Below are positions 5,453 to 62,568 of a stretch of 64,000 bases of DNA, piece by piece. Position numbers and translations under genes: made by a program. The DNA is from a virus (Duplodnaviria > Caudoviricetes), in the IMG/VR virus record IMGVR_UViG_3300021255_002417, positions 1 through 64,000 of that record, one strand, 5' to 3'. Numbering within the stretch: the first letter of the stretch is position 1; each line of letters starts with the position of its first letter. The notes below the pieces were generated by a model, which was not told the DNA's origin, searched no databases, and saw nothing but the letters and a program-made list of their open reading frames with translations.

Positions 5453-5857
5453 TTATTCAAAGCAAGTATATTTACCATTTGCTTTTACAATGCGACCATC
5501 TCCAATTCCTGAACGTACAATCTGTGCAGCATATTTCGGCATACGCCATTGCAGTTCATAAATATCATCAGATGATAGCTTTTCGTGATCACAAATACGT
5601 TTCGCAGTTTGACTAAGGAATTTTGCATCAGACTTATTAAAACCACGTTTATTGCTATAAACAGTGCATTCTGCAGCTACTTCATCAGACAGCTGATTTT
5701 TAAATACAATCATTAAACCTTTAACAGCAAACTTTGAGTCATTACCAAGTCTCTCGCGATACATATCAACGAGGACAGCTCTTGATTTAATGTTTTGATT
5801 CATAATTGTCATATCACAGTCTCCATTTGGTTTAATGGATGAAGCCATTTCATCCAT
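5453..5857 (-). CDS. Conserved phage hypothetical protein; true start probably near 5810, downstream of the leader hairpin
   Basis: KGLMIVFKNQLSDE...SNKRGFNKSDAKFLS resembles a widespread phage family; GGAGA RBS precedes MTIM. Confidence 0.6.
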   Translation of the reverse strand: MDEMASSIKPNGDCDMTIMNQNIKSRAVLVDMYRERLGNDSKFAVKGLMIVFKNQLSDEVAAECTVYSNKRGFNKSDAKFLSQTAKRICDHEKLSSDDIYELQWRMPKYAAQIVRSGIGDGRIVKANGKYTCFE

Positions 5858-6123
5858 TCATTTTATGAGCTTATTATGCCATAGTCTCATGAACTTGTCA
5901 ACCAATTTTTTAATCTGGTTGAAATTTTTTCAATTGACTGTCAACACTCAAATGGTCTGTTCAACCATTCGATAGGCATATAATACTGTGATTCAGCTAC
6001 CTTGTCAACTAAAAATTTCAAAAATTTTTGCATCATATTGTATCGAAATAAAGCCACTTTTGCATCAGTTTTGCATCAAAAACTAAAGCCAATTATTATA
6101 GCACAGAATTTCCAGCATGTCAA
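5834..6123 (-). promoter_or_regulatory. Array of three tandem sigma70-type promoters with leader hairpins
   Basis: Minus strand TTGACA-N17-CATAAT (5901/5878), -TATTAT (6008/5985), -TATAAT (6123/6100); hairpins at 5834-5860 and 5948-5973. Confidence 0.85.
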
Positions 6124-6131
6124 TAAAAAAA

Positions 6132-6158
6132 GAAGGGAAAATTTTTAGTTTTCCCTTC
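6132..6158. terminator. Intrinsic terminator
   Basis: GAAGGGAAAA...TTTTCCCTTC next to an A8 tract. Confidence 0.7.
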
Positions 6159-6285
6159 GTAATTATTACTTGTCTTTATGTTTATTTTTATAATATAAAA
6201 TTATTTGTTCTATAACTAAACAAACTGATAATATTAATATATATAATCCAATATATGATAATATAGATCTAACAAACATAAGTAG

Positions 6286-6693
6286 CTACTCTTTCTTTAG
6301 ATGATTATATTCTGGTTTATTAGTTAAATCTTTTTTAAGAGTATACAGCAATTCTTTTGACCATGATCTAAGTTCATTTAATCTTTGTGATATATAAGGC
6401 GCTTTTGATTCATCATTTGCGACTAATACTAAAAATGATTCACCTTTATTTAAAAGCATATTAAATACATCTTCATGTGGAATAGTTCTATTATTTTCAA
6501 CAACTAGTTCATTGTATTTTTTCAATGTATCAACAATTGACATACATAATAACAAAGCTGCTGCAGTTCTAAGCTCATGCTTACTATCAGCTTCCTTTAA
6601 CTTTTTATATATTTTTTCAATAAAAACAATCTCAAGCTCAGTATCATCAAGTTCTTTAAAAATATCTACAGTGTTTTCTGTGCTTTCACTCAT
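6286..6693 (-). CDS. Hypothetical protein
   Basis: 135-aa ORF, TAGGA RBS. Confidence 0.65.
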   Translation of the reverse strand: MSESTENTVDIFKELDDTELEIVFIEKIYKKLKEADSKHELRTAAALLLCMSIVDTLKKYNELVVENNRTIPHEDVFNMLLNKGESFLVLVANDESKAPYISQRLNELRSWSKELLYTLKKDLTNKPEYNHLKKE

Positions 6694-6720
6694 ACTAAAT
6701 CCTACTATATATTAAATATA

Positions 6721-7416
6721 TTAATTTATTTCTATGCCATTATTAAAAATATGCAATTTATTTGGAATAACTGAATTCCAATCCTCATCTGTTAGCTTTG
6801 TTGTTGAAACATGAATGCCACTATCTGTCTTTAAATAATAAAGACTATGTGCATTCATATAAACATACATATTATTTGTAAGACTATCTGTAAAGATTAG
6901 ATTTGTTTTACCTAATGTTGATAGTTCATGACATGTGTTTTCAATTACATGATACATACAATTGAAAAATTCATTATAATTTTCAAAATATGAATGCTCA
7001 TAAAATGAGTTAATTGCTTCAACAATACAGAGTAAAATACGCTCGCTGTCTGTTTCACCTTTTTGTAAAGTACCTAATGCAGCAACAGCAGGGCTATCAT
7101 CAATATAACCATTATGAATTAGTGACCACCTAATTCCTTTAACATCATATTTAATAAATGGGTGACAGTTTAATGCACTTGCAGGCCCATGTGTCTTAAA
7201 ACGAATATGACAAAGTGCAAGCTTTGATTCAAAATTAAATTTACCTAATCCCTTTATATAATTCATTGCAGAATTTGGATTTACATATAATAAATTACGA
7301 TCAGCAAGATAGTAACCAAACCCATCTTGGTGCACTCTTGAATGAAGCCAAAACTCATTAGTATAACGATTAAGTCTTGTAGGTTTATTTCCGCAAAATC
7401 CGTAAACTTCACACAT
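6721..7416 (-). CDS. Class II glutamine amidotransferase (Ntn hydrolase)
   Basis: N-terminal MCE nucleophile, HQDGFG, CHIRFKTHG, NCHPF, HNG, GETDSE. Confidence 0.9.
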   Translation of the reverse strand: MCEVYGFCGNKPTRLNRYTNEFWLHSRVHQDGFGYYLADRNLLYVNPNSAMNYIKGLGKFNFESKLALCHIRFKTHGPASALNCHPFIKYDVKGIRWSLIHNGYIDDSPAVAALGTLQKGETDSERILLCIVEAINSFYEHSYFENYNEFFNCMYHVIENTCHELSTLGKTNLIFTDSLTNNMYVYMNAHSLYYLKTDSGIHVSTTKLTDEDWNSVIPNKLHIFNNGIEIN

Positions 7417-7483
7417 TGCAATTTCTCCTGTGGGTTATTAGCAATAGACACAAACTATTGCTAAATATAGTATACACAAATTG

Positions 7484-8464
7484 TTAAATCGATTGAATCG
7501 ATCTTGATTTAAATTTTATTATTCTATCAATGAAAAAGTTTATAAGTGATGAGTCAAAATTGTAATTAAACAAAATATCAAAAATATTCATTTTCATAAT
7601 ATTTTTAACATATTGCATATTGTCAATATGATCTAACAAATCATATAATACATATGTTTGTAACTCTGCCCAATATAATATTGTTTGTAAATCTAATGTC
7701 CCTTCTAATTGCCTAAACTCAAAATGAAGTTTATTACATTCACCGTCATACGAAAATTCACAAAATCTTGAACTTAACTTCTGATATTTATTTCGTGGCC
7801 ATGGTTTAGTAGGATGACAATATTTATTGCGACGCCTTGATGTTGGTACAATTGGATCAAATACTGTTTTTTCCATAACAGAATATGCTGATAATAAATC
7901 ACATATACTACCACGGAAAATATTATTATGCTTAAAGCCAATATGAATATGTGTACCACATGATTTATTTACTTCTGCATGTAAATACTTTTTGCAATAT
8001 TCAATTACGGTTGTAATAGTTTTAATATCGTCTGCATTAAATAAATTAAGCTTTGGTGATGATAACTCATATCCAAATGGCTCTTTTAGAGATGAATCAT
8101 TTATATTTATTGAGCCATCCTTTCCAAGAATCCATGACGTGCCATCATTGTGCGTATATACTCCCGAACGAAAATATTTTTCTTTTAAAAGTCTAAACAT
8201 TTCTATATCAAATGCAGAAATGTCGTACTGGTCTTCACTTCCAACAAATTCAAATTCAATACCAAATGTAATATCAGGTAGTTTAATATCATGCAGAATA
8301 TGATAATCGATAGCTGATATTAATTTCTCATATAATGCACGAGACATTTTTGAATCGACACTTTGGTCTTTTAATTGTAATATTGCTGAAACTTTTGTTT
8401 CATTTTTTAGTGTTATTCCATATAGTGCTAATGATTTTGCATGTGACTCATTTATTGTTGGCAT
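7484..8464 (-). CDS. Putative amidoligase (COOH-NH2 ligase)
   Basis: TFGIEFEF, DGS, GYELSSP, NKSCGTHIHIG, EFRQLEGT. Confidence 0.88.
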   Translation of the reverse strand: MPTINESHAKSLALYGITLKNETKVSAILQLKDQSVDSKMSRALYEKLISAIDYHILHDIKLPDITFGIEFEFVGSEDQYDISAFDIEMFRLLKEKYFRSGVYTHNDGTSWILGKDGSININDSSLKEPFGYELSSPKLNLFNADDIKTITTVIEYCKKYLHAEVNKSCGTHIHIGFKHNNIFRGSICDLLSAYSVMEKTVFDPIVPTSRRRNKYCHPTKPWPRNKYQKLSSRFCEFSYDGECNKLHFEFRQLEGTLDLQTILYWAELQTYVLYDLLDHIDNMQYVKNIMKMNIFDILFNYNFDSSLINFFIDRIIKFKSRSIQSI

Positions 8465-8499
8465 ATAATATCTCCCTATATGAATTACACATAGTTAAA

Positions 8500-9914: not shown

Positions 9915-10079
9915 TTGAACAGGAACCATTCCCGTTCAATTTATGGTTTATTTATACCACACTTTTTTGAGCTTGTCAACCAATTTTTTAACCTGGTTGA
10001 AATTTTTTCAAAGAGTCTCAAACAAGCTTCACTGCTCATTTGATGGTCTAATAATAACAAAGTTTGGACTGTTTGTCAA
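9915..10079 (-). promoter_or_regulatory. Two tandem sigma70 promoters with leader hairpins
   Basis: TTGACA-N17-TATAAA (9979/9956) and -TATTAT (10079/10056); hairpin TTGAACGGGA-ATGGT-TCCTGTTCAA at 9915-9939. Confidence 0.85.
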
Positions 10080-14816: not shown

Positions 14817-15008
14817 TTATTTATTATTTAATAATTTCTTAGATTGGGCTATAATAATTTCTGACATAGCTTTAATATTTTCAGCTATATTTAATACTTC
14901 TGTTAAATTATAATTATCATCCATAAATATAATTTCACGCAGTTGTTTACTTAATTTATTTATGATACCCTCTGCTGATTCAATGCAGCATTTAGCTTCA
15001 TCGTCCAT
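14817..15008 (-). CDS. Hypothetical protein
   Basis: 63-aa ORF coupled to the upstream MTase stop. Confidence 0.55.
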   Translation of the reverse strand: MDDEAKCCIESAEGIINKLSKQLREIIFMDDNYNLTEVLNIAENIKAMSEIIIAQSKKLLNNK

Positions 15009-16684
15009 TAATTAAACCATCTTATTTCAGGAAAACCTTTATATCCTTTTTTCCAAACAAACCAAGCATAACAAACAGCTGAAGCATTATTACTATTACT
15101 TACACCATTCATATAGCATTTCATTCTTGAAGTTGAAACCCAAACTCTTATTGGAGGATATTTGTCAAATAAATGTCTTCTGGATTTACCTTCAAGAAAT
15201 GTTAATTTAAGGAACATACAAACATATCTTCCATCATCAACAAGTGATAGCGCCTTTTCTACAAATGATTTTGCACAGTTACCACAAAAAAATTCTAATC
15301 CATTTCTTCGTAATAAAAATACACCATTCTTTTTCAAATTTAAACACCATACTTTACCAGTATATTCTACAGCACACTTATCATTTTTATTCGATGGGAA
15401 ATACATACGATTATATATACTATTTCTATTCTCATATATTATATAAAGTGCATGATTTATTCCATCGCTTGTTTTATATTTTGAATGTACAATATGTGAC
15501 AATAAACCAGTCTTTAATAAAAGCTCTTGTATATCTTCAGCCAGCTTTTTAGATGCAGTTCTAAAAATTCTAGCTTTAGATGTTTTTGTATTAAATAACG
15601 AACCATCACCAAAGAAATATGCATTAAGAAAACATGAAATTTGTTGTGATGTTAAATTCTTAATATCTTCAGGAATAAATTTATCTGCTGATTTTCCAAA
15701 TTGTTTTAAATAATGCCAAAGCTGTTCATTATGAATTTCAAAACTTATACATGGCGATTTTTTACCTTTTACATCAGCATATTCTTTATATGTAAACGGG
15801 AGTTTTGATAATATTTCTCGAACTCGATAAGCTGTTTTTTCTGATTGTTTTATAGTTACAGTTTTTCTATAATTATTATTTATATTAGTTGTATGTCTAC
15901 AACACCCATCTGCTAACCATAATCCAAAGAACTCAAGCCAGCTATTCATATTAATCTTAATTTCTTCTTTATATATAGGCTGTGCATGTTTACAACCAGC
16001 TATGCCAGGTAAAACAAAAATATCTTTTTGAATACCTTTCCATATATAACCAAGTTTTGGTATATAGTGTGCGCCTCTTATATATTTACTTTTTATTAGA
16101 TCATTATCTTTAATGCTAAGCTTATTGCTCTTAGCATCAAAAGCAAACATACGATGGTTATCAGTTACCATAATATCCATGTGACTTTTTTTAAAATGGT
16201 ACATCTTCTCATCGTCTGTTTTATCACGAATAATTATTGAGTTTATTGTACTCCATTCAAGTTCCATAGTATTTGGGTTAACAGATAAAATTTCATCAGA
16301 TTCTTTAATATCTGTATAATATAGCCAACCTCGCTTTGTATAACACTGTGTTTCAGAATCAAAGCAGTTATAGGGCGGGTTAGTAATAATATCAGCATTA
16401 TGCATTGGTGTTTCACACGTAAGAAAATCAAGAATCTCTATTCCATCTTTTCTAGCAATAATATCTGAATTTCTTACATGTTTTCCAGCTGCTGTAAATA
16501 CATCTGATAATGATAAGCTACCACATGCACACTCCCAAATATTATCTGATATATCTGGTTCCAATTGTAATAACCATTCTGCTGCTTTTGAATCTGATGA
16601 ATAAAAATCATGATCTGCTCTATCACAATCAGAATGATTGCTACATCCATTTGTTACAAAAAGTGAACTGCTACTTTTGCCCAT
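15008..16684 (-). CDS. N6-adenine DNA methyltransferase interrupted by an intein
   Basis: DFYSS, WECACG, DFL, DIITNPPY, FVEKAL, YAWFVW around a 363-aa insert. Confidence 0.88.
   Translation of the reverse strand: MGKSSSSLFVTNGCSNHSDCDRADHDFYSSDSKAAEWLLQLEPDISDNIWECACGSLSLSDVFTAAGKHVRNSDIIARKDGIEILDFLTCETPMHNADIITNPPYNCFDSETQCYTKRGWLYYTDIKESDEILSVNPNTMELEWSTINSIIIRDKTDDEKMYHFKKSHMDIMVTDNHRMFAFDAKSNKLSIKDNDLIKSKYIRGAHYIPKLGYIWKGIQKDIFVLPGIAGCKHAQPIYKEEIKINMNSWLEFFGLWLADGCCRHTTNINNNYRKTVTIKQSEKTAYRVREILSKLPFTYKEYADVKGKKSPCISFEIHNEQLWHYLKQFGKSADKFIPEDIKNLTSQQISCFLNAYFFGDGSLFNTKTSKARIFRTASKKLAEDIQELLLKTGLLSHIVHSKYKTSDGINHALYIIYENRNSIYNRMYFPSNKNDKCAVEYTGKVWCLNLKKNGVFLLRRNGLEFFCGNCAKSFVEKALSLVDDGRYVCMFLKLTFLEGKSRRHLFDKYPPIRVWVSTSRMKCYMNGVSNSNNASAVCYAWFVWKKGYKGFPEIRWFN
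15278..16366 (-). mobile_element. Intein with LAGLIDADG homing endonuclease domain
   Basis: Starts CFDSETQ (Cys107), ends ...NGLEFFCGN followed by Cys+1; internal WLEFFGLWLADG and FLNAYFFGDGS. Confidence 0.9.
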
Positions 16685-40900: not shown

Positions 40901-40974
40901 ATTTATATCTCCAATATGTTATTGGATGGAAATTCCATCCAAGTTAGTTATTTATTACATCGCTAAACTTAATG

Positions 40975-42189
40975 CTATTCACTTGCTTTGAAATTGTAAA
41001 TCGGTTTAATAACATCCACAATGTCAATAGTATCTTTAACTAATTCAATAATCTCGTTTGCATCTTTATATGCCATCGGCGATTCATCCAATGTGGATTC
41101 ATTTACCGAAGTAGTAAATATACCTTCCATTGAGTGTTTAAAATCATCCATTGAAATTGCTTCACAAGCTTTTGATCGCGACATCAACCGACCAGCTCCA
41201 TGCGGACCTGAACAGTTCCAATCTTCATTTCCTTTGCCGATTCCGATGATTGATCCATCTTTCATATTAAGCGGGATTATACATTTTTCACCTTTGTTAC
41301 AACGAATAGCTCCCTTGCGAATTATATTATCTTCAAAGTCAATGTAGTTGTGAACAGTGTGGAATGCTTCAACAGGATCAACTTTTAAAAATTCAATAAT
41401 ACGACGAGCAATCTCTTCACGATTTTTAACTGCATATTCTTGACATATTTTCATATCATGTAAATAGTCATCACGATGTGCACCTTCTAAATAACATAAA
41501 TCTTCCGGTACTTTTTCTATGTTAGCATATTTTTCTCGCAATTCACGAACAGCCTGTGCTATTTCTTTATGACGCAAAGCCTCTTTATATTCAGCAATCA
41601 GTTGTTCAGTTTTAGCTTTTACCTCTTCAGATTTTACATTGCAATCGTCAATAGCAATCGCCTGATAATATCGACAAACTTGCTGTCCTAAATTACGTGA
41701 ACCTGTATGAATAACTAAATAAACATTTCCTTTTGAATCTTTGTTTAATTCAATAAAATGGTTACCACCACCTAACGATCCAACAGAGCGGAATAAGTGT
41801 TCAACATTTTTAAGATATTTCCACATTTTTAAGTCCTGCAATTTTGCAAAACCTACGCAATGTTTATCATCATTCGCAGTCATTCCAGCCGGAACATTTT
41901 CATGAATAAATTTATCTAATCCAGCTAATACATCATCAGATATATCAACTTTACCTAATTCACAAACATACATTCCGCAGCCAATATCAACACCTACTAA
42001 ATTCGGAACAACTTTATCACCTAAATTTGCAGTAAATCCAATAACACAGCCTTTACCTGCATGAGTGTCCGGCATAATACGAACTTTCGCATCTCTAAAT
42101 ACTTTTACAGACAGTAACTGTTTTAACTGATCGTTGACTTCCTGTTCAACAGTTTTTGCAAAAATTTTTAAGTTCATATTAGCCTCCAA
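40975..42189 (-). CDS. rtcB: RtcB RNA 2',3'-cyclic phosphate ligase
   Basis: MPDTHAG, VGVDIGCG, GSLGGGNHFIE, HTGSR, VHNY, HGAGR, DESPMAYK. Confidence 0.95.
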   Translation of the reverse strand: MEANMNLKIFAKTVEQEVNDQLKQLLSVKVFRDAKVRIMPDTHAGKGCVIGFTANLGDKVVPNLVGVDIGCGMYVCELGKVDISDDVLAGLDKFIHENVPAGMTANDDKHCVGFAKLQDLKMWKYLKNVEHLFRSVGSLGGGNHFIELNKDSKGNVYLVIHTGSRNLGQQVCRYYQAIAIDDCNVKSEEVKAKTEQLIAEYKEALRHKEIAQAVRELREKYANIEKVPEDLCYLEGAHRDDYLHDMKICQEYAVKNREEIARRIIEFLKVDPVEAFHTVHNYIDFEDNIIRKGAIRCNKGEKCIIPLNMKDGSIIGIGKGNEDWNCSGPHGAGRLMSRSKACEAISMDDFKHSMEGIFTTSVNESTLDESPMAYKDANEIIELVKDTIDIVDVIKPIYNFKASE

Positions 42190-42394: not shown

Positions 42395-42661
42395 CGAACA
42401 AGGATCCATTCCATGCTCATTTGTTGTCTTATTTATACTGCAAACCAAACTCTCTGTCAACCAATTTTTTAACCTGGTTGAAATTTTTTCAAAGAGCATT
42501 CAAATGAACTCATCGCCCATTTGATAAACCAATAATACCACAGACTAGCCTTGTTGTCAACTAAAAATTTCAAAAATTTTTGCATCAGTCTGTATCTGAA
42601 CGTGTGACAAAGTGTCACAGTTTAAATTATTTATTATAGCACATTTTTAGTTGCTTGTCAA
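42395..42661 (-). promoter_or_regulatory. Three tandem sigma70 promoters with hairpins
   Basis: -35 at 42460, 42560, 42661, each N17 to TATAAA/TATTAT/TATAAT. Confidence 0.85.
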
Positions 42662-43039: not shown

Positions 43040-44068
43040 CTACCAATCAGCATTCATGTATATCTTCTCTTCATCAAAATTAGTATCTTCAAGAACTTTA
43101 CTAAATTGAATATAAATCTCGCATACTTTATAGAATAAAAATGAATCATTAGAATCTAATGCTTCGCTGCATATTTCATCAGCTTCATCAATAAGACTGT
43201 CTGTTACTAATCCATTTTTAAATGTCAAATAATTAGACCTATCACCACCACATCTAATAGTACAGCCTTTATAATTAATTGGTGACGTATCAATTTCAAA
43301 TCCTTTATCAGTGAAATGTTTTTCTACCATAAGAATTAATTTCTTTGACATTGTAACAAGATCTTCAATTTGAGACTTTGTTATTTCAACGTCTTTGCCA
43401 TAATCTTCATCTTTATAATTGAAATAATTTACAATCCACCAAAGCTTTCTAAAGTATGCTACTTCATCACCGTCTACATCACTTCTATAAACATTGCTAT
43501 TACGACGTAGATATGTCATTATAATATCAGCTAAGCAAGCTTCAAAATCAATATGATTTTCATCAGTATAATAATGAAGATCTTCAATAGCAGTCGTTAA
43601 ATCTTTATTAGTAGAGGCACATAAATTTGCAGAAATATCTGCAAATGATTTTGTAGCATGACGATGTATAGGTTTTCTTATAAAGTAAACATCAAGTCCC
43701 ATATATATCTCCACTATTTAATCAAGAACCCAGTCAAGATAAAATACTTTATCCAAACATTTAATGGAAATTACAGGCCAACCACCTGCAGGTCCGCACT
43801 CTTGAAATACTCTGCATTCAACAGATGATTCCATGTGTGCTTTAATCCAATCTTCCATATCAGATTCTTTCATATCATTCTGATCAGCCATAGCCCATAA
43901 TGTATCATTACATTTAAGCTCATTAATCATATCATTAAAGTTTTCGCAAGCTGTATACCGTGATAATATATCATGAAGAACTTCACATTCATGACAAAAT
44001 GCATTAAGCTGATTAACTGTACGAAGTGCCATAATTATATACTCCCTATATTGAATGAATGGAACCAA
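43040..44068 (-). other. Two hypothetical CDS (43040..43714, 43718..about 44030)
   Basis: ORFs downstream of the promoter and hairpin at 44056-44117. Confidence 0.65.
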
Positions 44069-44113
44069 TCCATTCAGTTTGTAAATTATTTATAGCATAT
44101 AATAATGATTTTG

Positions 44114-44629
44114 TCAACCATTATTTTTAGCTATTTGCTTTGCACGATTTCGTTCCCTAATTTCTGCCTGTTTACGAATTACCACCCATGATTTAATTTC
44201 ATTATCTATAGAGCAATCCTCTTCTTCTGAATGGATTATATTATGGGCTTTTTCACACACCCACATAAGATTTGACGGGTGGTTATTAAATACATCATGA
44301 TCTTTATGGTGCACATGTAGTTCACCTTCGCATACATGGTCGGGATCAGTACATGCACATTTTTTAATTAAACACATTTTAGCAACATCGCGTGCCAAAT
44401 GGTATGCAGCTGTAATAAGGTTTTCAACTTCTTTATCGTCACCTCGCCGAACTGCATTTATATGCTTCATCTTGCGGGCGCGATATGCTTTTTTCGCGCC
44501 TCTTTTAGCACAATTATCGGAACAATATATGGTATTCCTTGAGTCTGATTCAAATGACTCACCACAAATTTTACAAACTTTTGTGTATGCCATATTTGAC
44601 TCCAATGCTATGAATGAGACCATTCTCAT
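44114..44629 (-). CDS. HNH endonuclease with an N-terminal Zn ribbon (true start near 44593)
   Basis: CKICG...YCSDNC; LHVHHKDHDVFNNHPSNLMWVCEKAHNIIH. Confidence 0.8.
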   Translation of the reverse strand: MRMVSFIALESNMAYTKVCKICGESFESDSRNTIYCSDNCAKRGAKKAYRARKMKHINAVRRGDDKEVENLITAAYHLARDVAKMCLIKKCACTDPDHVCEGELHVHHKDHDVFNNHPSNLMWVCEKAHNIIHSEEEDCSIDNEIKSWVVIRKQAEIRERNRAKQIAKNNG

Positions 44630-44862
44630 TCATTTGTTAAATTATTTATAACGCATATTCAATTCTCTGTCAACTAAAAAATTCAGTTAACAGAAATTTT
44701 TCAAAGAGTCATCAAGCGAGCATCTTGCTCATTTGATAAAGCAATAGTACCATAGTTCAGTCGATTTGTCAACTGAAAAATTTCGAAAAATTCAAGAAAT
44801 TGCATCAGATTTTATCAGAGATTTTGGCACATTATTATAGCACATTTTTAACCATCTGTCAA
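44610..44862 (-). promoter_or_regulatory. Three tandem sigma70 promoters with hairpins
   Basis: -35 at 44673, 44772, 44862; perfect hairpin ATGAATGAGA-ATGG-TCTCATTCAT. Confidence 0.85.
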
Positions 44863-45830: not shown

Positions 45831-47000
45831 CTATCGGTGATATTTGAGAAGGAAGTTTGGAGATACACATTTAAAGTTCTGTTGACCATCTTGTGAATAG
45901 AAAACAAACCCTTCAATATCACCACCATCAATTGCAGATTTACATGAATCTACATAATTAACAATCTCTTCTACTGATTTTGGAATTTTATAATCATAAT
46001 CATAAACATGAACATGTGGCAATTCGCGATCTTCACAGATCTTAACCATTTCTTTGATTGGTAATCGTTTGCCATCGAACCAAATATGAAATACAACAAA
46101 GTCATGTTTATTTTTTAATGAATAAGTACGTTTTTGAATTCCATCACCATAAGTCTCACCCTGAATTGCAACGGTCTTTAAACCATGCACAATTTTTAGA
46201 GATTTGAGAAGTTCTTGCATATTGTATTTAAATCCAGATTCTGCCCACACGTTGCATTTATAGTAATTGCCACCATCTGAGTCTTTATCAGGATTTTTAA
46301 TTACATTATGTGAACCTACCATATATTTATCTTTTTCATTCAAGATAAATGAAGTAGAACAACCATCAACTTTTTCAGTGATAATATATTTATCATTGCA
46401 ACCAAATAAATGTGGGAGATTTTGAATACGTTCAGATCCAGTCTTTGGTAACCATTCCGGCCATTTACATTTATCTTTATCTTTTTTATGTACAAAGACT
46501 TTTGCTAATAACCATCGCACTGGTTTATATTTCATCAAATATTTTACAATTGGATTTTTAAAGAATTTCTTATGACGATCCATTGCACGTTGAAAATCAG
46601 AGACTTTAGGTTTAGAGCATTGATTTTCACATACAGGCTCAGGATCATATTTTTCTACATGAAGTTTATCAGTTACAAAATCGCCTTCTTTACAACCTTT
46701 TAATTCAGGAAAATCGGATAATGGAAGTACAAGTCCTTGTGATACAACTTTGCAGATCTTAATAGTTTTAACTAGATATTTGCGTTTTTCCATAAATGCA
46801 AATCGTGCATCGTTCGCAGGCAACTTAGAGTCAATTTCAAAGTATACTACAAGATCACCAGTTTTAATATCTTTAGGCGCAACGCACCACCACCCCAAAA
46901 CTTTTACATAGTGAACAGAATCATAACCAGGAAGTTCTTTTGCTTCAGACACTTTAACAATGTATGCAAGTTCTCGTTCATTAGTTTTTGGATTTAACAT
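45831..47000 (-). CDS. ATP-dependent RNA ligase, Rnl2/DRB0094-like
   Basis: N-terminal OB-like VLGWWCV..GDLVVYFEIDS; motif I EKVDGCS; IQGETYG; FHIW; IEGFVF; FKCVS. Confidence 0.85.
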   Translation of the reverse strand: MLNPKTNERELAYIVKVSEAKELPGYDSVHYVKVLGWWCVAPKDIKTGDLVVYFEIDSKLPANDARFAFMEKRKYLVKTIKICKVVSQGLVLPLSDFPELKGCKEGDFVTDKLHVEKYDPEPVCENQCSKPKVSDFQRAMDRHKKFFKNPIVKYLMKYKPVRWLLAKVFVHKKDKDKCKWPEWLPKTGSERIQNLPHLFGCNDKYIITEKVDGCSTSFILNEKDKYMVGSHNVIKNPDKDSDGGNYYKCNVWAESGFKYNMQELLKSLKIVHGLKTVAIQGETYGDGIQKRTYSLKNKHDFVVFHIWFDGKRLPIKEMVKICEDRELPHVHVYDYDYKIPKSVEEIVNYVDSCKSAIDGGDIEGFVFYSQDGQQNFKCVSPNFLLKYHR

Positions 47001-47014: not shown

Positions 47015-47530
47015 TTATTGAAGTCCATCTTCAAAGTTACAAATACTGATGTGGAGTTCGGTAGCAAGATCTTCTACTTCTTTTCTTGCAACCCGCAGTT
47101 TATCATAAAGTCCGTCACTGATATAATGTGAACTAATAGCACAATTCAGTCTTAATAATGAAGACAATAGATCAGAACATAATCGCTTTGAATCCATTAA
47201 ACATGCAATCTCATAAGCATCTTTAATTTGTTTATTCGGCATATTAGTAACCTCCAGCATATAATGCTAAATAAAATTGCTACTTAAATAGTGATTTTAT
47301 TTTTAGTCTTCATCATCATCTAACTCTTCAATGTCATAATATTCATCAAAAGACATTCCATATTCTTCTTCCATGGAAGCTTCATAATCATCAGAAAAAC
47401 TTAAATAACACTCTTCACAAAGAGCAAGTGTTGAATTGTGCGACACATAGGCTGCAGGATTAAAGCAACACATACAAGTCCGACGTTTACGTTTCATAGC
47501 AATCTCCGTGAAAGATTGAACAGGATCCAT
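47015..47530 (-). other. Two small hypothetical CDS (47015..47260, 47303..about 47497)
   Basis: ORFs with GGAG RBSs. Confidence 0.55.
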
Positions 47531-47682
47531 TCCCGTTCAATTTATGATTTATTTATATCATAATCTCAGGTATCTGTCAACTAAAAAATTCAGTTAACAG
47601 GAACTTTTTTCAAAGTCTAATGAATGGCTTATTCACTCATTCATTATGGGTATATAGTACCATAGTTCAATCAGTTTGTCAA
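47516..47682 (-). promoter_or_regulatory. Two tandem sigma70 promoters with hairpins
   Basis: -35 at 47580 and 47682, N17. Confidence 0.85.
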
Positions 47683-48831: not shown

Positions 48832-51225
48832 TTATTTCCCAAAAATATAACGAACAAGTTTAATTAATGAATCTTCAAGATCATCTTCACATTCATCTTT
48901 TTTGTTATTGTTATTTTCAATAAGAGATTCAATAGGAACTTTCTTTTTATCAGAACGAGCTTTTGCATTGCAGGCATCTTCAAGGTTCTTTTTACGATTT
49001 ACAATCTTATTATAAATATCATCCTCTGAATCTTTTGCGTCTACTTTAATGTGTTCTTTTTCATCATTATCAGATTTATCATTGTCATTATTTAGTTTAA
49101 TATAATCATTCAATCTCTGATATGCTGATGGACATTTACAAGTCCATTTAGTATCTTTTTTATCTGTATTTGAACAATCAGGCTTTGCTACCTTAATCCT
49201 ATCATCATTTGGTACTTTAATAACATCAGCTAATCGTTTAAATGATTTATTATAATCATCAAACCAATCCCACCCAAAACCATACATGTCAGAAATACGT
49301 TTCATACGTTTACGATGAGCGGTTAACCAATCATTATCATCATCCCATGATTTATTTAAAAGATTATCTTTAACAACATTATTTAATTTAGCTTTATCAG
49401 TTGTACAACTAAATGTGCGAGTCTCTTCACTCCACTTTGTATCACCAACAGACTCTACTTTATGATAAGTACAATGTTTATTTTTATCATCACCATTATC
49501 AGATAATGTAATAACTGTTTTACATTCAATACCATCTACATCTTTTTTCAGAACTGCCTTAAATGTACAATCCTTATCTTTTTCACGATCAATCACTGAT
49601 TCTTTTGCATCAATATGATAGCCATCTTTAATGTAAGAATGAATAGCATCAGAGGCAACAGTGTTCATATCGTTGGAATCATTAAACTTTGTCAACATAA
49701 TTACTTGTCCTCCATATTATATATTTTCTCATAATCAGAAATAAATTTTTCTTCACTAGTATCACCACTGATAAACCAATCTAGTGAGTGCATTACTTTT
49801 GCAAGTTTACCAAGATCCTCACAAATAAGTTTCATATATGTAAGTGTCTTTGAATTGTATGCGTATTCATCGCTGTCATTAGCACAGTATTCAATATAAC
49901 CAATTTCTTTTGCAACCATACCCTGAAGGTAGTTAAGTTCATTATCTTTGTAATCGAATGCTCCGCCACTCATTACTTAATCTCCGTATAAGTTTCAGGA
50001 AAGTTTCCTATTAAATACATGTCTTCATAACACTTTGAAAGGTATTTAATACGTTCATCTTCAGCTTCTTTTTCAGAGTCAGCATAAACATCATAGTACG
50101 ATTTGTAATAACAACGTGATTCTTCAAAATCAAATCTGTGATCTTCATTGCATTTAACGACAAAAATTATAACGAAGTGATCATAACTACATCGTGTTAT
50201 GATTTTAACTGTATAGTGATTATTAGTAAGTACAGCTACAAATTCTCTTTTATCAGTCTGCTCTGTAGGAACTATTCTGTAACCTTCTAACAAAAACGAC
50301 CTTATAATGTCTGCTGGTTTGTTATTAAGTTCTTTTAAAGAGTACAATGACATAATCCTAACCTTTATTAAGACGCTCTACGAGCATTGTTGTCAACTAC
50401 ATCATCAAACCATCTTCCACCAAACTCAAATCGCTTCATAATAATTTTATTAGGATTAATAAGATCACTTAATTTAATAACAACAATATGTAAATCACCT
50501 GGATAAGCATTTTTTCCGGATAGCATATAAAAATCATCCATCTCATTTCCATCAATGACATGAAACACAGCACCATCTTTTAAACCGCATTCACGATCAA
50601 GATAATTTGCATAATCGTCCAAGCTGTCTAAATCAAGACCCTCAAGTGTTAGAGCTGATGTATCATAGAATTCATCACAAAGACTCATTGTGACGTCTGT
50701 GTTAACAGTGTACTTTTTCATGCTATATCCTCTTGTGTTAATGAATGAATTCATTCCATTCATTTGTTAAGTTATATTATATGCACATTCCTGAGAATGT
50801 CAACTAATTTTTTAAAATTATTTACAGCATAGTAATTCATCAACGTATTTGTCTAAGAATTCACTATGATTATTCGTGTATAATTCTCTATCTTCATTAG
50901 CAAGTTTTTCATATAGCAACACTTGTTCAATGCTAGGAAAATGTAAAGTAATACATTCATCACATTGTACAGTTTTATCACATTTTACATTTAATTCAAT
51001 AGCAGTACTCAAACCATCAAATTCTCTGTTGACTGTTACACCTGCAATAGTCTCAAACATGTATATCGTTTTTAATTTGCCACGACGAGCTAATAATGAA
51101 ACTTTTAACAGTGCCTCACGAATTTGAACTTCATTTGAGCTATCAAAGAAATTCCAAATTGTTGCTATAAATGGTATAATTCTTTTTGCCTGTGTACCAG
51201 CAACTGTAGTAAGTTTTATGCTCAT
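48832..51225 (-). other. Block of hypothetical CDS (48832, 49701, 49973, 50368, 50818)
   Basis: Co-oriented ORFs; 48832 and 49973 share an N-terminal domain with 56660. Confidence 0.65.
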
Positions 51226-51490
51226 TGCTAAACTCCAGTGAATGGGATCATTCCATTCATTTTGTGAATTTATTATGCCATGAGTTTAATCCACTGTCAA
51301 CTAAAAAATTCAGTTAACAGAACTTTTTTCAAAGAGTCTCAAATGAACTCATCGCTCATTTGATAGACTAATAATAGCGTAAAGTGATCCTCTTGTCAAC
51401 AGAAAAATTTCGAAAAATTAACCAATTTTGTATCGAATTGTATCAGAAATTTTGATGCTATATTATACCACAATTTCCAATATTTGTCAA
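50741..51490 (-). promoter_or_regulatory. Promoter with hairpin at 50741-50803 and three tandem promoters at 51239-51490
   Basis: -35 at 50803, 51300, 51399, 51490. Confidence 0.8.
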
Positions 51491-58435: not shown

Positions 58436-58695
58436 AACTATGCCAACAATCTTAGACTTCCCAATGAGTTAGTAACTCACGGGAAATTTTTGCAAAATGC
58501 AATGTCACTGCGAAAGATTTTGTTTTCTTATTTGTTGGACGACATGTATAAATTATAAATGGCTTATCTTTTACGCCTGTTATCGAGTAAACATAAACTT
58601 TACGAGCTTTATATGAAAGTGGAAAATTCGCGGCATGTTCAATACGTTCACGCTTTTTAATTGTTCTCTGTTTCATAAGTCTACCCATTTGGTTA

Positions 58696-58992
58696 ATGAA
58701 CAAGGACCCATTCCTCATTCATTTGTTGCTTTATTTATACCATGAATCAAGTCCTCTGTCAACTAATTTTTTCAGTCAAAGAGAATTTTTTCAAGGCATC
58801 AAATGAGTCTCATTGCTCATTTGATAAACCTATAGTACCATATTTCAGCAAGTTTGTCAACTAAAAAATTACCTAAAAAGAAAATTTTTTAACTAAAAAT
58901 CTGGTACAAACTTTGCATGTGGAAATCTTGGTACAAATCGATACAGACAAATAAAGCGGTGCAATTCTACCACGAATCAAATTGGTTGTCAA
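58696..58992 (-). promoter_or_regulatory. Three tandem sigma70 promoters with hairpins
   Basis: -35 at 58762, 58860, 58992; hairpins ATGAATGAGGA-ATGGG-TCCTTGTTCAT and ATCAAATGAG-CAATGAGA-CTCATTTGAT. Confidence 0.85.
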
Positions 58993-59017
58993 CTAAAAAA
59001 TTCAAGTATTTTTCTAA

Positions 59018-59811
59018 TTAAAAGTCATCCATTGTTTCATTATTATCAGGATCATTAAATGGATCGTATGATGGTTCTAAATCATCTTGTCTTTTCATTT
59101 CGTCATAATAATCAAATTTACTTCCTACTTTCCAATCATCATTATCAGAGCAGTCCCATCTATAATTTCTACATGTATTAAATCCCTCATAAGCTTCATC
59201 ATCTTTAAGGTCATTAAATACATTATCATCATCCCATATATTATGTTGCTTTGGTTCTCCAGTTAAATAGTCAAATGAATCTTGATCATCATATTCATCA
59301 CAATAACGGCCATCATCATCCCACACTGATGAATAATAATGATCTCGCCAAGTATCTTCGTAATCCCATTTATTATTTGACTTATATAATTTATTACATT
59401 CTGCTAATTGTTCTTTACTTGTATTTATAATATGTAAATTATTATTCTCACTTAATGCTGTATGTAAATAATCTTCAATTTCACCTGGCATAAATCCAGA
59501 TTCTTTCATTGCTGTAACAGTATATGCCATAACATCGAATACAGTCTCAAGTCCCTGAATACTATACATATATGCCTCCATTATGCTATACAGCAATCTT
59601 CATTTTGTTTGTCAAGATTTTCTTTATGTTTACGATAATCTTCTCGTACGTTAGCAGCAATAGAACTTAATACACGAATAATTCCCCAATGACCATCATT
59701 ACTAAGTTTACGTATGTTATGACGTTTTGCATAATTAAGTGCAGCTCGTTTACTAGCAAAGTAAACAATGTTATACAATCCAATATTATTCACTGTGTAA
59801 ACGTAACGCAT
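59018..59811 (-). other. Two hypothetical CDS (59018..about 59569, acidic; 59581..59811, true start at MRYVY)
   Basis: GGAGG RBSs before the inner ATGs. Confidence 0.6.
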
Positions 59812-59834
59812 AAGCTTCCTCCATTTATAAATAA

Positions 59835-60005
59835 TGTCATACTCAGGGATCGAACCTGAATCTTCCAACAGGCATCTAATATGATTCCTATAATTGTATT
59901 GATCCTGAACTTATAGAAATAATATTCTACTCACGAATTGAACGTAACCAATTATAGGTATTAGTTTATAGCTTCTGTGGACGTCTTCAAATTAACCAGT
60001 ATGAC
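59835..60005 (-). ncRNA. 171-nt tRNA-like RNA with a long structured insert replacing the anticodon loop
   Basis: GTCATAC/GTATGAC-A acceptor, TCAGG-TTCGATC-CCTGA T arm, 4-nt variable region, extended stem CCTATAATTG/CAATTATAGG. Confidence 0.75.
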
Positions 60006-60009
60006 AAAG

Positions 60010-60110
60010 CGGGGTGTTTTTAGGTAGCTACTCTTTTTCAGCAACAGGACATTCACCCAAAACCTCTGTGTTAGCTAGCCTCACTAACATTGCCCGATTT
60101 TAACGGGACT
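60010..60110 (-). ncRNA. Candidate multi-hairpin structured RNA
   Basis: CCCG/CGGG, TGTTAG/CTAACA, TTTTGGGT/ACCTAAAA and GTTGCT/AGTAGC stems; GC-richer than the flanks. Confidence 0.4.
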
Positions 60111-60113
60111 TTA

Positions 60114-60189
60114 TGGGAAATAAAAGATTTGAACTTTCATCTAACGGCCCAATGAAGGCCGGTTGTTTTACCAATTAAACTAATTTCCC
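60114..60189 (-). tRNA. Atypical tRNA (7-nt loop TTCATTG, nominal CAU anticodon with U37)
   Basis: GGGAAAT/ATTTCCC-A acceptor, canonical D and T arms, anticodon stem CGGCC/GGCCG extended by AAC/GTT-like pairs. Confidence 0.55.
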
Positions 60190-60292
60190 ATAAATATTAT
60201 TTATACATTGAGCTATAATGTCATCAGCGCGAACTCAATGTATATTTTTCTCTATCGCGCGTAACATCACTATATAGAGAATATTTATAAAG

Positions 60293-61485
60293 TTACGAAG
60301 CTACTTTCGGACGTTTATAATTTTTCCAATCGTTCAACGGATGTAAACCATCTACAAGCCAATCTTCCCAATGTGCAATCCCGGAATTTGGATTTACAGC
60401 ACCCTCTTCACCATAACCTTCATCATCAGCACTCCAATATGGATTGTCGCTTGATAACGATCTCCAAACCATTGCTTTATTTAATGTAGGAACAAAACTT
60501 ACTGTCTCATAATGATTATCAGTTTCATCAAATTGAAATACAAATACTGAATCAGGATCATCTTCAGGGAAATTTTCTATTTTATCAATGTAACCATAAT
60601 AAGGACTGTCAATATAGAAATGATTAAATTTCAATTCAATGCCATTTAGATTTGTAAACTCTTTTGCCATTTCTTTTGCTTTTTCATGCAAAGCACTAAA
60701 ATCATGTGTAGCTTCAACGTTCATTACTTTACCTCCAAAGTATAGTATTAAATAAGCTCGGTTAAAAGATCACCATAAACATCGCCCGGAATATCACCAT
60801 CCGGATAGTCTTTAATTTTACCCATGGAATTAATTTCGCAAATAACTCCATGTGCAGTCCGGATTTTATAACCCGTCCATTTGTTATGTTTAATTTCAAG
60901 TCTTGCAAACAAAATTGCAATAGGATTATTCGTAGTGATAAGATCTTTACCTTCAGGTGTTATAAGTGTTACAGTAGGTTCAACAGGCAGATTGTCAAAA
61001 TTAATTGTCATGATAAACCCTCTTTAATCAATGTTATTTTAACTTTGAGTTCTTGTCATCTCTATCATTGCATAAACGATCATACATAGAGAATATTTCA
61101 AACTTGAGATCTGCTACTTTGTCTTTAAGATATTGAATATTACATGGTAAAGACTCTGTTTCGCATTTGTGAAGATAGACATCAAGATCCCCTACATAAT
61201 CAACTGCAGACGCTAAATCTAATACGAAGTGTTCAACCAATTTATTATAATCTTTATAGTCTATCATGACGGTTCTCTCTATTCAATCAAAGTTATTTTA
61301 ACCTGTTTAATTTTGCATTCCTGTCCGTCATTACCATGATTAATTCTTAACTTTGCACCTTTTTCAGTGACAAATAAATGTGCTTTATCAAAACTGTCAT
61401 ATCCGTAACATGAAGAGATACTTTGATGTTTCCAATAGAATTTACCATCAGCTCTCTGAATAACGTACATTATTCTATCTTCCAT
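60293..61485 (-). other. Four hypothetical CDS (60293, 60748, 61034, 61279)
   Basis: Co-oriented ORFs with RBSs. Confidence 0.6.
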
Positions 61486-61487
61486 GA

Positions 61488-62380
61488 TTAACCAACTCCA
61501 ATTGAGAACTTACCGAAACTAATATCAATCTCTTCTTTATCAATCGGATATTCATAATATTCAGAAGTATAATAGCCTGAATCGGGAGCTTCAATGACAA
61601 CTTCCATATCAGGATCCACTGTCTTTAACATTTCAATAAGTTCTCCAGCTGTCATAATATTTTCTCCCCTATGATTTATTACCGATTACCATCTGAATCC
61701 CACTGAGAAATAAGAAGTGCAGTAGGTTCATTACCATGTTCATTAAACGGATACCCATCTTTTATGGAACGGATATACTCTTACGTATTCCATTCCAACC
61801 TTCACAATCTTCTGTATAAACAGTCAGATTCTGGTCAAATGTTTTCAGAATTTCAATGAGTTCTTTTACTGTCATAATGTATTCTCCGTTTGGTTTATTG
61901 AATGGATCCATTTCATTCAATGTAAATGAAAAGTTTTACGTAATCATTTAGAAATGTACATTATCTTTTCATCATCGTCCTGTGTAAAATCAGATTCACA
62001 CATTTCATCCTGAACCCATTCGTAGCCATCTTTACATGGCCCAACAACTACGTAATCTTCATTAAACATTTTAAGTTTTTCAATCAATTCTTTTACTGTC
62101 ATGTTATTTTCTCCGTTTGGTTTATTGAACAGGATCCATTCCCATTCAATTTATGGTTTATTTATATCACAGATTCAACTGAATGTCAACAGGAATTTTC
62201 TATTTATTTATCAGAAATGTCAAGAATGACTATATGACCGTTTACTTTAACATCGTCTTCATCAAAATCCTCAAGATCTTCCCAGCATAACCCATAGAGA
62301 TCACCTTTCATAAACCGAACGAGAACCTGTGAATCAGAATCAAGTGCCGATAATTTTTTAATCAATTCCTGTACTGTCAT
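61488..62380 (-). repeat. Tandem array of four small MTVxELIxxL paralogs (61488..61655, 61762..61875 short or frameshifted, 61944..62102, 62204..62380)
   Basis: Hand translation MTAGELIEMLKTVDPD, MTVKELIEILKTFDQN, MTVKELIEKLKMFNED, MTVQELIKKLSALDSD; duplicated leader CTCCGTTTGGTTTATTGAA at about 61884 and 62111. Confidence 0.75.
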
Positions 62381-62568
62381 TTTAAAGTCTCCATTTCGGT
62401 TCAATGAATGAATTCATCATCCATTCAATTTATGTGTTATTTATACCATGTTTTCAGCTGTCTGTCAACTAATTTTTTCCAGTCAGTTGAAATTTTTTCA
62501 AAGAACACTCAAACGACTCATTCGTCATTTGATAGGCATATAATACGGCAAACAGACCTGATTGTCAA
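62125..62568 (-). promoter_or_regulatory. Promoters with hairpins at 62125-62189 and 62404-62568
   Basis: -35 at 62189, 62468, 62568, N17. Confidence 0.85.

Follow-up and report, generated by a model that had tools for sequence, protein, structure and literature searches.

Two families of conserved hairpins at the predicted 5' ends of early transcripts in an uncultivated large phage

Does a phage known only from metagenomes mark its early transcripts with a common RNA signal? An earlier note on the window (the whole 64,000-nt stretch of phage DNA analysed here) had reported a short hairpin behind nearly every promoter and proposed that a single factor recognizes them all. We find that most host-polymerase messages of this large phage are predicted to be headed by one of two conserved hairpins. 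The reading we favor as fairly likely is that these 5'-leader families do different jobs, Nus loading for the distal class (P2) and 5' protection plus recognition of the loop by a reader for the proximal class (P1).

Promoter cassettes and their hairpins

The promoters recur in a cassette that runs intrinsic terminator, P3, P2, about 100 bp, P1, SD, and first gene. P2 and P1 are 97–107 bp apart, and the terminators upstream of the cassettes are canonical, with T runs. An exact TTGACA-N16-18-TANNAT is found at 23 sites, where 2.6 would be expected. P3 promoters have a perfect TATAAT, while the -10 boxes of P1 mostly read TATAAA, which corrects the TAnnAT previously given for proximal promoters. 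The cassettes are paralogous and recombine. Host RNA polymerase would transcribe them, making the hairpins RNA elements at transcript 5' ends. Because a pyrimidine-A is kept 7 nt 3' of the -10 in 33 of 35 units on the contig, the inferred start lies 5' of every hairpin.

In the window, 26 hairpins (14 P1 and 12 P2) lie directly behind sigma-70-type promoters, and two further copies have no -35. Those listed in the earlier note were all recovered on the minus strand, which is the sense strand. The share of promoters with a hairpin is about 26 of 36 since the P3 class, about ten sites, carries none; 'nearly every promoter' was thus too broad. Stems are 8–12 bp long in both classes, with folding energies of -9.2 to -12.8 kcal/mol (z of -2.3 to -3.8 against dinucleotide shuffles).

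The P1 hairpin begins at +5 to +9 from the inferred start, leaving 4–8 free 5' nt, and ends 5–10 nt before the SD, which is usually GGAG and often lies within AAAUGGAGA. The P1 copies in the window are:

5834–5901, minus strand: P1 unit; -35 5901–5896, -10 5878–5873, inferred start 5866; hairpin 5858–5834, 10 bp, loop AUGGC
9915–9979, minus strand: P1 unit; -35 at 9979, inferred start 9944; hairpin 9939–9915, 11 bp, one G.U, loop UGG
28307–28371, minus strand: P1 unit; hairpin 28330–28307, 8 bp, loop UAAUGGGU
39208–39269, minus strand: P1 unit, no P2 upstream; hairpin 39228–39208, 8 bp, loop UUGGU
39762–39827, minus strand: P1 unit; hairpin 39786–39762, loop AUGGA, stem differing through compensatory changes
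42396–42460, minus strand: P1 unit; hairpin 42418–42396, 9 bp, one G.U and one mismatch, loop AUGGA
44056–44117, minus strand: P1 unit, no P2 upstream; hairpin 44076–44056, loop UUGGU
44610–44673, minus strand: P1 unit; hairpin 44633–44610, 10 bp, loop AUGG
47515–47580, minus strand: P1 unit; hairpin 47541–47515, 11 bp, one G.U, loop AUGGA
50740–50803, minus strand: P1 unit, spacer 16; hairpin 50764–50740, loop AUGAA, without GG
51239–51300, minus strand: P1 unit; hairpin 51259–51239, loop UGA, without GG
58695–58762, minus strand: P1 unit; hairpin 58723–58695, 12 bp, two G.U, loop AUGGG
62124–62189, minus strand: P1 unit; hairpin 62150–62124, 11 bp, two G.U, loop AUGGA
62405–62468, minus strand: P1 unit; hairpin 62427–62405, 9 bp, one G.U, loop GAUGA
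61892–61923, minus strand: P1-type hairpin within an operon, no recognisable -35; SD 9 nt further on
40916–40947, minus strand: P1-type hairpin without -35, preceding the RtcB gene; loop UGG lost (AUGGC in the G001 ortholog)

The last two belong to a set of four P1-type copies without a -35, so the P1 hairpin is not strictly bound to a 5' end.

The P2 hairpin begins at +1/+2 from the inferred start in all twelve window copies, and 2–5 nt after it comes a single-stranded boxA-like word, G-Y-UCUUUGA-A/C-AA:

5948–6008, minus strand: P2 unit; inferred start 5973; hairpin 5972–5948; variant GUUGACAG replaces the usual boxA-like word
10004–10079, minus strand: P2 unit; inferred start 10044; hairpin 10043–10018; boxA-like word 10014–10004
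28397–28471, minus strand: P2 unit; hairpin 28435–28410; degenerate boxA-like word 28406–28397
28494–28568, minus strand: second P2 unit of the same cassette; hairpin 28532–28509; boxA-like word 28504–28494
39866–39925, minus strand: P2 unit; hairpin 39889–39866; without boxA-like word
39950–40025, minus strand: P2 unit; hairpin 39989–39964; boxA-like word 39960–39950
42485–42560, minus strand: P2 unit; hairpin 42524–42500; boxA-like word 42495–42485, preceded by GC, best match to the E. coli core
44697–44772, minus strand: P2 unit; hairpin 44737–44711; boxA-like word 44707–44697
47606–47682, minus strand: P2 unit; hairpin 47646–47618 with P1-like stem and long loop; shortened boxA-like word 47615–47606
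51325–51399, minus strand: P2 unit; hairpin 51363–51339; boxA-like word 51335–51325
58787–58860, minus strand: P2 unit; hairpin 58825–58798; shortened boxA-like word 58795–58787
62494–62568, minus strand: P2 unit; hairpin 62532–62509; boxA-like word 62504–62494

The cassette with two P2 units (28397–28568) heads a stretch of about 18 kb that holds a tRNA array and the DNA polymerase gene.

Selection on the stems

Stem pairs in G000, with G.U and A.C scored alike, comprise 313 Watson–Crick, 29 G.U, and 9 A.C. Within helix interiors from four genomes, G.U pairs outnumber A.C by 34 to 7 (P = 6e-4), and the antisense strand folds 4–5 kcal/mol worse wherever a stem has a G.U. We compared orthologs between G000 and G001, two phages that are 80–90% identical. 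Single-sided stem changes were Watson–Crick to or from G.U in 26 cases versus Watson–Crick to or from A.C in six (P = 3e-4), and six changes were double and compensatory. Per-site divergence is 32–42% in the -35/-10 spacers and 9–12% in the stems; in the loops it is 16% for P1 and 26% for P2. A plain MAFFT alignment of P2 has 95% of cells paired, with both sides changed in eight of ten pairs; none of 500 shuffles reached the observed score, and slid alignments were 23–47% paired. Among 75 covariance-model matches to P1, pairing was 95% and both sides had changed in seven of eleven pairs. Judged from this G.U excess, the compensatory changes, and the covariation, selection is acting on the sense-strand RNA of the hairpins, as had been suspected.

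These inverted repeats just downstream of promoters might instead act as DNA, either as operators for dimeric repressors or as PeSL-type terminators or recombination sites. A simple scan did flag two P2 hairpins as terminator-like, and indels between G000 and G001 end inside the cassettes, as with the PeSLs of T4-like phages (PMC2839356). We nonetheless regard a DNA role as highly improbable: the arms vary freely while pairing is kept, mismatched pairs read G.U on the sense strand but A.C on its complement, and the stems are AU-rich with no immediate U run, the true T-run terminators lying upstream of the cassettes. Recombination at repeats can also be a side effect of repetition. PeSL cassettes (Arbiol 2010; Comeau 2014) likewise repeat a near-consensus early promoter together with a stem-loop, occur where small orphan genes abound, and mark the ends of indels between close relatives. 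However, their stem-loop precedes the promoter, has a G-run/C-run, and terminates transcription, whereas the stems here are AU-rich parts of transcribed 5' leaders and fall into two classes.

The proximal loop and its putative reader

The (A)UGG loop of P1 is kept in four phage genomes, even on entirely different stems. It persists at a DNA polymerase identity of only 75%, also in copies built on unrelated stems. GG stands in the loop of 50 of 55 hairpins adjacent to an SD and of 6 of 15 others (P = 1e-4). This specific conservation suggests a trans-acting reader. The P1 hairpin probably shields the 5' end and is read by a putative factor: the stem would guard the early message against 5'-end-dependent decay, and a phage or host factor reading the loop sequence-specifically would control how well the entire early message set is translated or how long it lasts. 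Counting against shielding by the stem, the 4–8 unpaired 5' nt of P1 reach or exceed the limit described for stabilising 5' stems.

CsrA had been offered as an analogy. The P1 hairpin would then be a bipartite site (GGA in the loop plus the SD) through which host CsrA represses or protects early messages. Loops AUGGA, AAGGA, and ACGGA do agree with the A-N-GGA motif of CsrA, the SD commonly supplies a second GGA, and the loop-to-SD spacing of about 15–25 nt is inside the CsrA bridging range. This explanation is quite unlikely, as only 28 of 70 loops contain GGA. What follows GG is variable (A 28, U 23, G 10, C 5), and what precedes it is nearly always U, the reverse of the CsrA preference. None of the four phage records, of which one is 95% complete, contains a CsrA gene, and a search for candidate readers found no homologues of CsrA, RegA, or RegB. 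With roughly 20–30 early leaders per genome sharing one SD-adjacent motif, the arrangement does resemble the T4 RegA and CsrA regulons, in which one protein serves many leaders. The motif is UGG-centered, however, in contrast to the GGA of CsrA and the AU-rich site of T4 RegA.

Alternatively, P1 could serve a phage N-type antiterminator as a boxB-like site, in concert with the boxA lying upstream on transcripts from P2 and P3. P2 transcripts carry boxA and, about 70 nt later, the P1 hairpin, whose loop is sequence-specific, and terminators lie between cassettes. We consider this very doubtful, given that many P1 units lack an upstream P2 or boxA (39269, 44117, 50803, 62189), that a distance of 70 nt stands against roughly 8 nt in the nut sites of lambda, and that the motif is bound to an SD 5–10 nt downstream, which a transcription signal would not need. 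Membership in the boxB or put families, also suggested earlier, is not supported: the loop is not GNRA-like, each element is a single hairpin, in contrast to the two stems of the roughly 70-nt HK022 put RNA, and an Rfam scan with the hairpins matched no family.

The distal leader and its boxA-like word

Exact copies of the word UCUUUGAAAAA number 10 in G000 and 11 in G001; each lies on the sense strand, immediately 3' of a P2 hairpin. Together they account for only 21 of the 32 P2 leaders of the two genomes. In G002, UCUUU follows only about four of nine distal hairpins. In the relatives G002 and G003, a hairpin and a canonical rrn boxA precede tRNA genes with no promoter downstream, and this boxA 17-mer is also found in many phyla, in their rrn leaders or spacers.

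Bacterial rrn leaders carry tandem P1/P2 promoters, a 5' or boxB hairpin, and a boxA, and are bound by a complex of NusB–S10, NusA, and NusG. Those of B. subtilis open with a 5'-terminal hairpin, directly after which comes the NusB-binding AUGAUCUUUGAAA (PMC13753749), and their consensus, ending in UCUUUGAAA, matches the phage word at 9/9 positions. The phage shares with rrn leaders the tandem strong promoters about 100 bp apart and the small 5'-end hairpin leading at once into a single-stranded GYUCUUU-type word. It differs in reiterating the layout about 15 times per 72 kb before protein-coding early operons, and in overlapping the word with the upstream A-tract of the next promoter.

T7 offers a second parallel. 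Its boxA behind the early promoters is genetically proven (PMC3709561) and lies downstream of host promoters A1–A3 (Savalia 2010, cited therein). The shared picture is of a virulent phage that combines host polymerase, tandem consensus promoters, and an early-leader boxA without an N protein, but T7 has a single boxA, while here every cassette has one, each after a 5'-terminal hairpin. With lambda nut and HK022 put the leaders share a promoter-proximal position and could likewise confer termination resistance; boxA is common to nut, although here the hairpin precedes boxA instead of following it, and no N protein was identified in the phage.

By these analogies, the P2 hairpin and boxA-like word are most likely a Nus-factor anti-termination leader, as in T7. 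The 8–12 bp hairpin at +1/+2 and the word behind it copy the rrn leader layout and would recruit host NusB/S10, NusG, and NusA to the polymerase, making transcripts from P2 (and P3) resistant to Rho and terminators and able to cross long or untranslated regions, the tRNA array among them. The nut-like role once proposed for all hairpins is thus plausible for the distal class, by way of a boxA-like word that the earlier note had missed. A single signal for both classes is not supported: the distal loops CAAUGA/CGAUGA hold in this genome only, the close relative G001 having GAACAG, GGCGAA, and the like, and the two families stand in different contexts.

The word also continues into an A6 tract, located around -64 to -59 of P1, and may act as a UP-type DNA element instead of, or besides, a boxA. 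A broader form of this idea makes both hairpins plain 5' stabilisers without a reader, the word a UP element of P1, and the loop a relic of recent ancestry or gene conversion. Known stabilisers (the E. coli ompA, B. subtilis aprE, and T7 phi10 leaders) pair a 5' stem-loop with a strong SD. The short phage leaders look similar, with hairpins at or near the inferred 5' ends (P2 stems at +1/+2), poorly conserved P2 loops, and paralogous, recombining cassettes. We still think this unlikely. P1, unlike those known leaders, leaves 4–8 free 5' nt, and a plain stabiliser would need no sequence-conserved loop. P2 and P3 promoters have a T-tract upstream instead, which sets the word apart from a generic UP element, and the boxA core before tRNA genes in G002 and G003 has no promoter to serve. 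P1 loops, moreover, have changed far less than the change-saturated spacers, and UGG tracks an adjacent SD on unrelated stems in all four genomes.

Promoters and hairpins in the repeated cassette

Exact TTGACA-N16-18-TANNAT promoter sites were found 23 times, against 2.6 expected. On the − strand, the intergenic regions repeat a single cassette, whose elements are, in order, an intrinsic terminator, a promoter of a third class (P3), a distal promoter (P2), an A/T-rich stretch, a proximal promoter (P1), a hairpin, a GGAG Shine–Dalgarno (SD) sequence and the gene. The −35 boxes of P2 and P1 lie 97–107 bp apart, and the P1 −10 is mostly TATAAA, followed by TAA. Of 35 units, 33 keep a pyrimidine-A step 7 nt past the −10, and we infer that this A is the transcription start. 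Relative to it, P2 hairpins begin at +1/+2 and P1 hairpins at +5 to +9, leaving 0–1 and 4–8 unpaired 5′ nucleotides before the stem, respectively. In 5′-terminal stabiliser stem-loops the stem is a few nucleotides at most from the end of the primary transcript.

An earlier note on this DNA had described a hairpin at nearly every early promoter. The hairpins lie where it placed them (14 P1 and 12 P2 in the window), with folding energies of −9.2 to −12.8 kcal/mol (z −2.3 to −3.8), but their ubiquity was overstated: about ten P3-type promoters, which have a perfect extended −10, carry no 5′ hairpin.

P3 promoters in the window
6123, 40138, 42661, 44862, 51490, 58992; − strand; −35 sites of P3 promoters
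10148, 28636, 47762, 62626; + strand; −35 sites of P3 promoters

P3 leaders contain repeats of the GATGCAA/GATACAA type (GATGCAAAA, GATACAA or GTGCAATC). The + strand copies are directed away from all genes; they would yield RNAs of about 70 nt whose 3′ ends lie at the bidirectional terminator that closes the upstream operon. The −10 and discriminator of P1 read TATAAATAA (e.g. window 9956-9948 and 62166-62158), within which lies TATAAATA, the T4 late-promoter word. Four P1-type copies lack a −35. Because TAATAAATAA is retained in hairpin copies without a −35 (window 40916-40947; 72310-72343 in the close relative G001), a −35-independent form of the polymerase might use some P1-type units.

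Selection on the stems

G001 was found through the P1 motif; it is 91 kb long, syntenic with the genome of the contig (G000) and 80–90 per cent identical to it in nucleotide sequence. Two more distant relatives, G002 (204 kb, 95 per cent complete) and G003 (156 kb), have DNA polymerases 75–76 per cent identical. Stems were delimited with a helix finder that scored G.T and A.C alike; a generic hairpin scan with a tolerance of two non-Watson–Crick pairs in 9 bp proved too loose for this AT-rich DNA and was set aside.

The stem pairs of G000 comprise 313 Watson–Crick, 29 G.U and 9 A.C pairs, the last mostly at helix ends. In helix interiors of the four genomes, 34 G.U pairs stand against 7 A.C (P = 6e-4 against strand composition), and at hairpins with G.U pairs the opposite strand folds 4–5 kcal/mol worse. 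A comparison of 27 orthologous hairpin pairs between G000 and G001 gave the same bias among single-sided stem changes (26 between Watson–Crick and G.U, 6 between Watson–Crick and A.C; P = 3e-4), together with six double compensatory changes. Per-site divergence between these two genomes is 0–1 per cent in the −35, 1–5 per cent in the −10, 9–12 per cent in the stems, 16 per cent in P1 loops, 26 per cent in P2 loops and 32–42 per cent in the promoter spacer.

When 32 P2 leaders were aligned with ordinary MAFFT, 95 per cent of cells were paired and both sides had changed in eight of ten pairs; none of 500 shuffles reached the observed score, and slid registers gave 23–47 per cent pairing. A scan of the genome and its relatives with a P1 covariance model, a check the earlier note had proposed, returned 75 hits in the four genomes, also with 95 per cent of cells paired and with both sides changed in 7 of 11 pairs, counts that lean toward structure because the alignment was fitted to the model. 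Strong P1 hits fall on the sense strand, including + copies (68163, 68265, 68672) where the genes turn to that strand. The G.U bias, the covariation and the sense-strand hits identify the transcript as the target of selection, as the earlier note had supposed. DNA operators are contradicted by the freely varying arms and the G.U bias. The stems also contradict a role as terminators: they are AU-rich and no U run adjoins them, although a simple scan did flag two in P2.

A boxA-like word behind the distal hairpins

P2 hairpins are followed, 2–5 nt past the stem, by a word consisting of G, a pyrimidine and UCUUUGAAAAA. The UCUUUGAAAAA part is present in 21 of the 32 P2 leaders of G000 and G001, preceded mostly by GU, GC, AC or AG, and the exact 11-mer has 10 copies in G000 and 11 in G001, all of them on the sense strand and immediately 3′ of a P2 hairpin. 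The word is degenerate or absent in about one-third of P2 leaders, and it overlaps an A-tract. The region upstream of both P2 and P3 is a T-tract, unlike that upstream of P1; since these upstream regions differ in this way, the word does not appear to be a generic UP element.

In B. subtilis rrn operons a small 5′-terminal hairpin is followed at once by AUGAUCUUUGAAA, which is bound by NusB, and the E. coli boxA consensus is UGCUCUUUAACA (PMC13753749). NusB–NusE recognises an 8-nt core (PMC3177189), and boxA has been searched for in gamma-proteobacteria with the consensus GYTCTTTAANA (PMC5725501). By the consensuses of PMC13753749 and PMC5725501, the P2 word contains the core GYUCUUU(A/G)A of rrn leaders, predicted to be single-stranded in the nascent RNA. 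Its surroundings also have the rrn-leader layout, with a hairpin just 5′ of the word, close to the inferred start, and tandem promoters. By sequence, the core of the P2 word is that of an rrn-type boxA.

In G002 and G003 a hairpin is followed by UCUUUGACAA(C/U).GAAUA. At G002 136193 and 136740, both directly upstream of tRNA genes, and at G003 146094, a canonical rrn-type boxA and a conserved GAAUAAGAGAAAG word follow the hairpin. The 17-mer of the G003 copy, UCUUUGACAACUGAAUA, turned up in over 120 species spread across many phyla; chance alone would give about 70 matches. Of 80 loci retrieved, 20 have 16S or 23S landmarks no more than 1.5 kb away by a crude test, and the flanks carry the usual G-Y prefix. 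This proximity to rrn landmarks, with the prefix, indicates that the phage family does use an rrn-type boxA. The boxA region UCUUUGACAACUGAAUA itself is, on these matches, conserved far more widely than the E. coli consensus suggests. Matches in leaders or spacers of rrn operons came from Firmicutes, Acidobacteriota, Nitrospirota, Deltaproteobacteria, Saccharibacteria and other groups.

The hairpins had also been likened to lambda boxB and HK022 put, and they are neither. The boxB of lambda nut lies about 8 nt after boxA, and its GNRA-like pentaloop binds the arginine-rich N peptide. Here the order is reversed, the hairpin preceding the boxA-like word, and the loops are not GNRA-like, being variable in P2 and AUGGN in P1. 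HK022 put, located behind pL and pR, has two stems in about 70 nt of RNA; the present elements are single hairpins of 25–29 nt. No Rfam family matched them: the window gave only tRNAs at the gathering threshold, and one cassette, searched at E up to 10, gave nothing credible, only chance matches at the level of eukaryotic snoRNAs.

In T7, genetic evidence has established a boxA behind the host-type early promoters (PMC3709561). In the phage studied here, the hairpin and boxA of P2 and P3 transcripts would recruit NusB–S10, NusG and NusA, and the polymerase would become termination-resistant. One cassette, with two P2 units (28568, 28471), heads a promoter-poor stretch of about 18 kb that holds the tRNA array and replication genes, and it is there that processive transcription would matter most. 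If this is correct, the phage family drives its early genes with many copies of the promoter-leader design of host rRNA operons. The hijacking of boxA, familiar from lambda and T7, would then extend to large uncultivated phages and to cassettes present in multiple copies.

The proximal loop and its link to the SD

The P1 covariance model had 29 hits in G002 and 18 in G003, where the −35 is TTTACA and the P1 leader and hairpin are kept; the leader hairpin was also present in three further IMG/VR contigs. Loops of AUGGA, AUUGG, AAUGGAC or AGUGGG persist on wholly different stems, and 53 of 70 loops (non-redundant P1 hits) contain UGG. A GG in the loop is found in 50 of the 55 hairpins with an SD and start codon within 20 nt, versus 6 of the 15 others (P = 1e-4). 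The distance from stem end to SD is 5–10 nt in most P1 copies, and the SD is mostly GGAG. One P1 hairpin of G001, at about 37190-37225, contains an 11-nt internal duplication of the loop and 3′ arm that produces a longer stem-loop.

The earlier note had assigned a shared AAUG(G/A) loop to all the hairpins. This holds for P1 and fails for P2, whose loops in G001 are unlike those in G000; distal hairpins of G002 often have a P1-type stem, without UGG. On these comparisons there are two hairpin families, not one. The note's interpretation stands in part, for the RNA-level selection and for an antitermination role of P2, which the boxA-like word makes plausible, and not as one signal for both classes.

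Several readings of the P1 loop were rejected. A pseudoknot between the loop UGG and a downstream CCA is contradicted by the presence of CCA between stem and SD in only about one-third of copies. Inconsistent reading frames argue against translation from the loop AUG, whether as a start codon or within a mini-ORF; pairing with 16S rRNA in the manner of STAB-SD could involve at most 3 bp; and the stems are too short for RNase III sites.

The analogy with CsrA, also drawn earlier, fared poorly. CsrA/RsmA sites have a nearly invariant GGA in a hairpin loop (A-N-GGA) and a second GGA that overlaps the SD, 10–60 nt away. P1 has the second GGA, its SD being mostly GGAG. Only 28 of the 70 loops contain GGA, and the constant base is the U that precedes GG, the following one being variable, so CsrA fits poorly as the loop reader. 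Six-frame searches of G000–G003 found no CsrA (PF02599), T4 RegA (PF01818) or T4 RegB (PF10715); for G000, G001 and G003 this absence carries little weight, because these records are partly incomplete.

P1 transcripts would lack boxA, and their hairpin would shield the 5′ end; the UGG loop beside the SD may be recognised by a factor that governs how the early messages are translated or decay. Leaders of the rrn/T7 boxA style and 5′ UTR hairpins are already-known kinds of element; it is the UGG-loop motif that is undescribed. We put forward tentatively, and with more doubt than confidence, the proposal that this loop is the operator of a dedicated RNA-binding factor, phage-encoded or hijacked from the host, that co-controls translation or decay of 20–30 early messages across a whole family of large uncultivated phages, and that with the parallel, N-independent, rrn-mimicking Nus leader it forms a two-layer RNA code for early expression. 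The P1 hairpin is a compact motif absent from databases; it covaries clearly, occurs in dozens of copies per genome and has its loop tied to the ribosome-binding site. These features recommend it as a clean, testable candidate for a post-transcriptional switch acting throughout the phage, and it may double as a portable 5′ UTR part.

Cassettes as apparent boundaries of gene modules

Synteny blocks of G000 and G001 break at cassettes, e.g. 59582-62388 versus G001 82633/82628, among the few junctions inspected. The indels between these 80–90 per cent identical genomes are of kilobase size and end inside promoter-hairpin cassettes, which suggests modular gene shuffling by recombination between repeats, similar to that of PeSL (promoter-early stem-loop) elements; it appears to be at the cassettes that related phages exchange gene modules. 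A PeSL stem-loop lies upstream of a promoter and is a terminator with a G run, loop and C run (PMC4122927). The stems here are not PeSLs in the strict sense, being AU-rich, downstream of the −10 and without a U run; the likeness is that the cassettes are reiterated and bound indels between close relatives.

Genome and gene content

Searching bacterial genomes for a host with the P1 motif gave three chance matches only, without the hairpin and at 43 per cent GC, and the extended boxA word of G002 and G003 gave no match. Megablast against a phage collection found no close named relatives, and its family-A DNA polymerase shares only about 23 per cent identity with those of known phages. The source contig, an IMG/VR viral record of 72,497 bp from which the window takes bases 1–64000, is about 34 per cent complete (CheckV) and has 30 per cent G+C. 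Nearly all genes of the window are on the − strand, and the first genes downstream of promoters are small orphans. The window also contains the tRNA array, RtcB, RNA ligase and amidoligases.

Selected genes of the window
7484-8464; amidoligase-family protein
15008-16684; LAGLIDADG-containing protein
40975-42189; RtcB ligase
45831-47000; Rnl-type RNA ligase
62750-63964; amidoligase-family protein

The RtcB and Rnl-type ligase genes form an RNA-repair set close to the tRNA genes.
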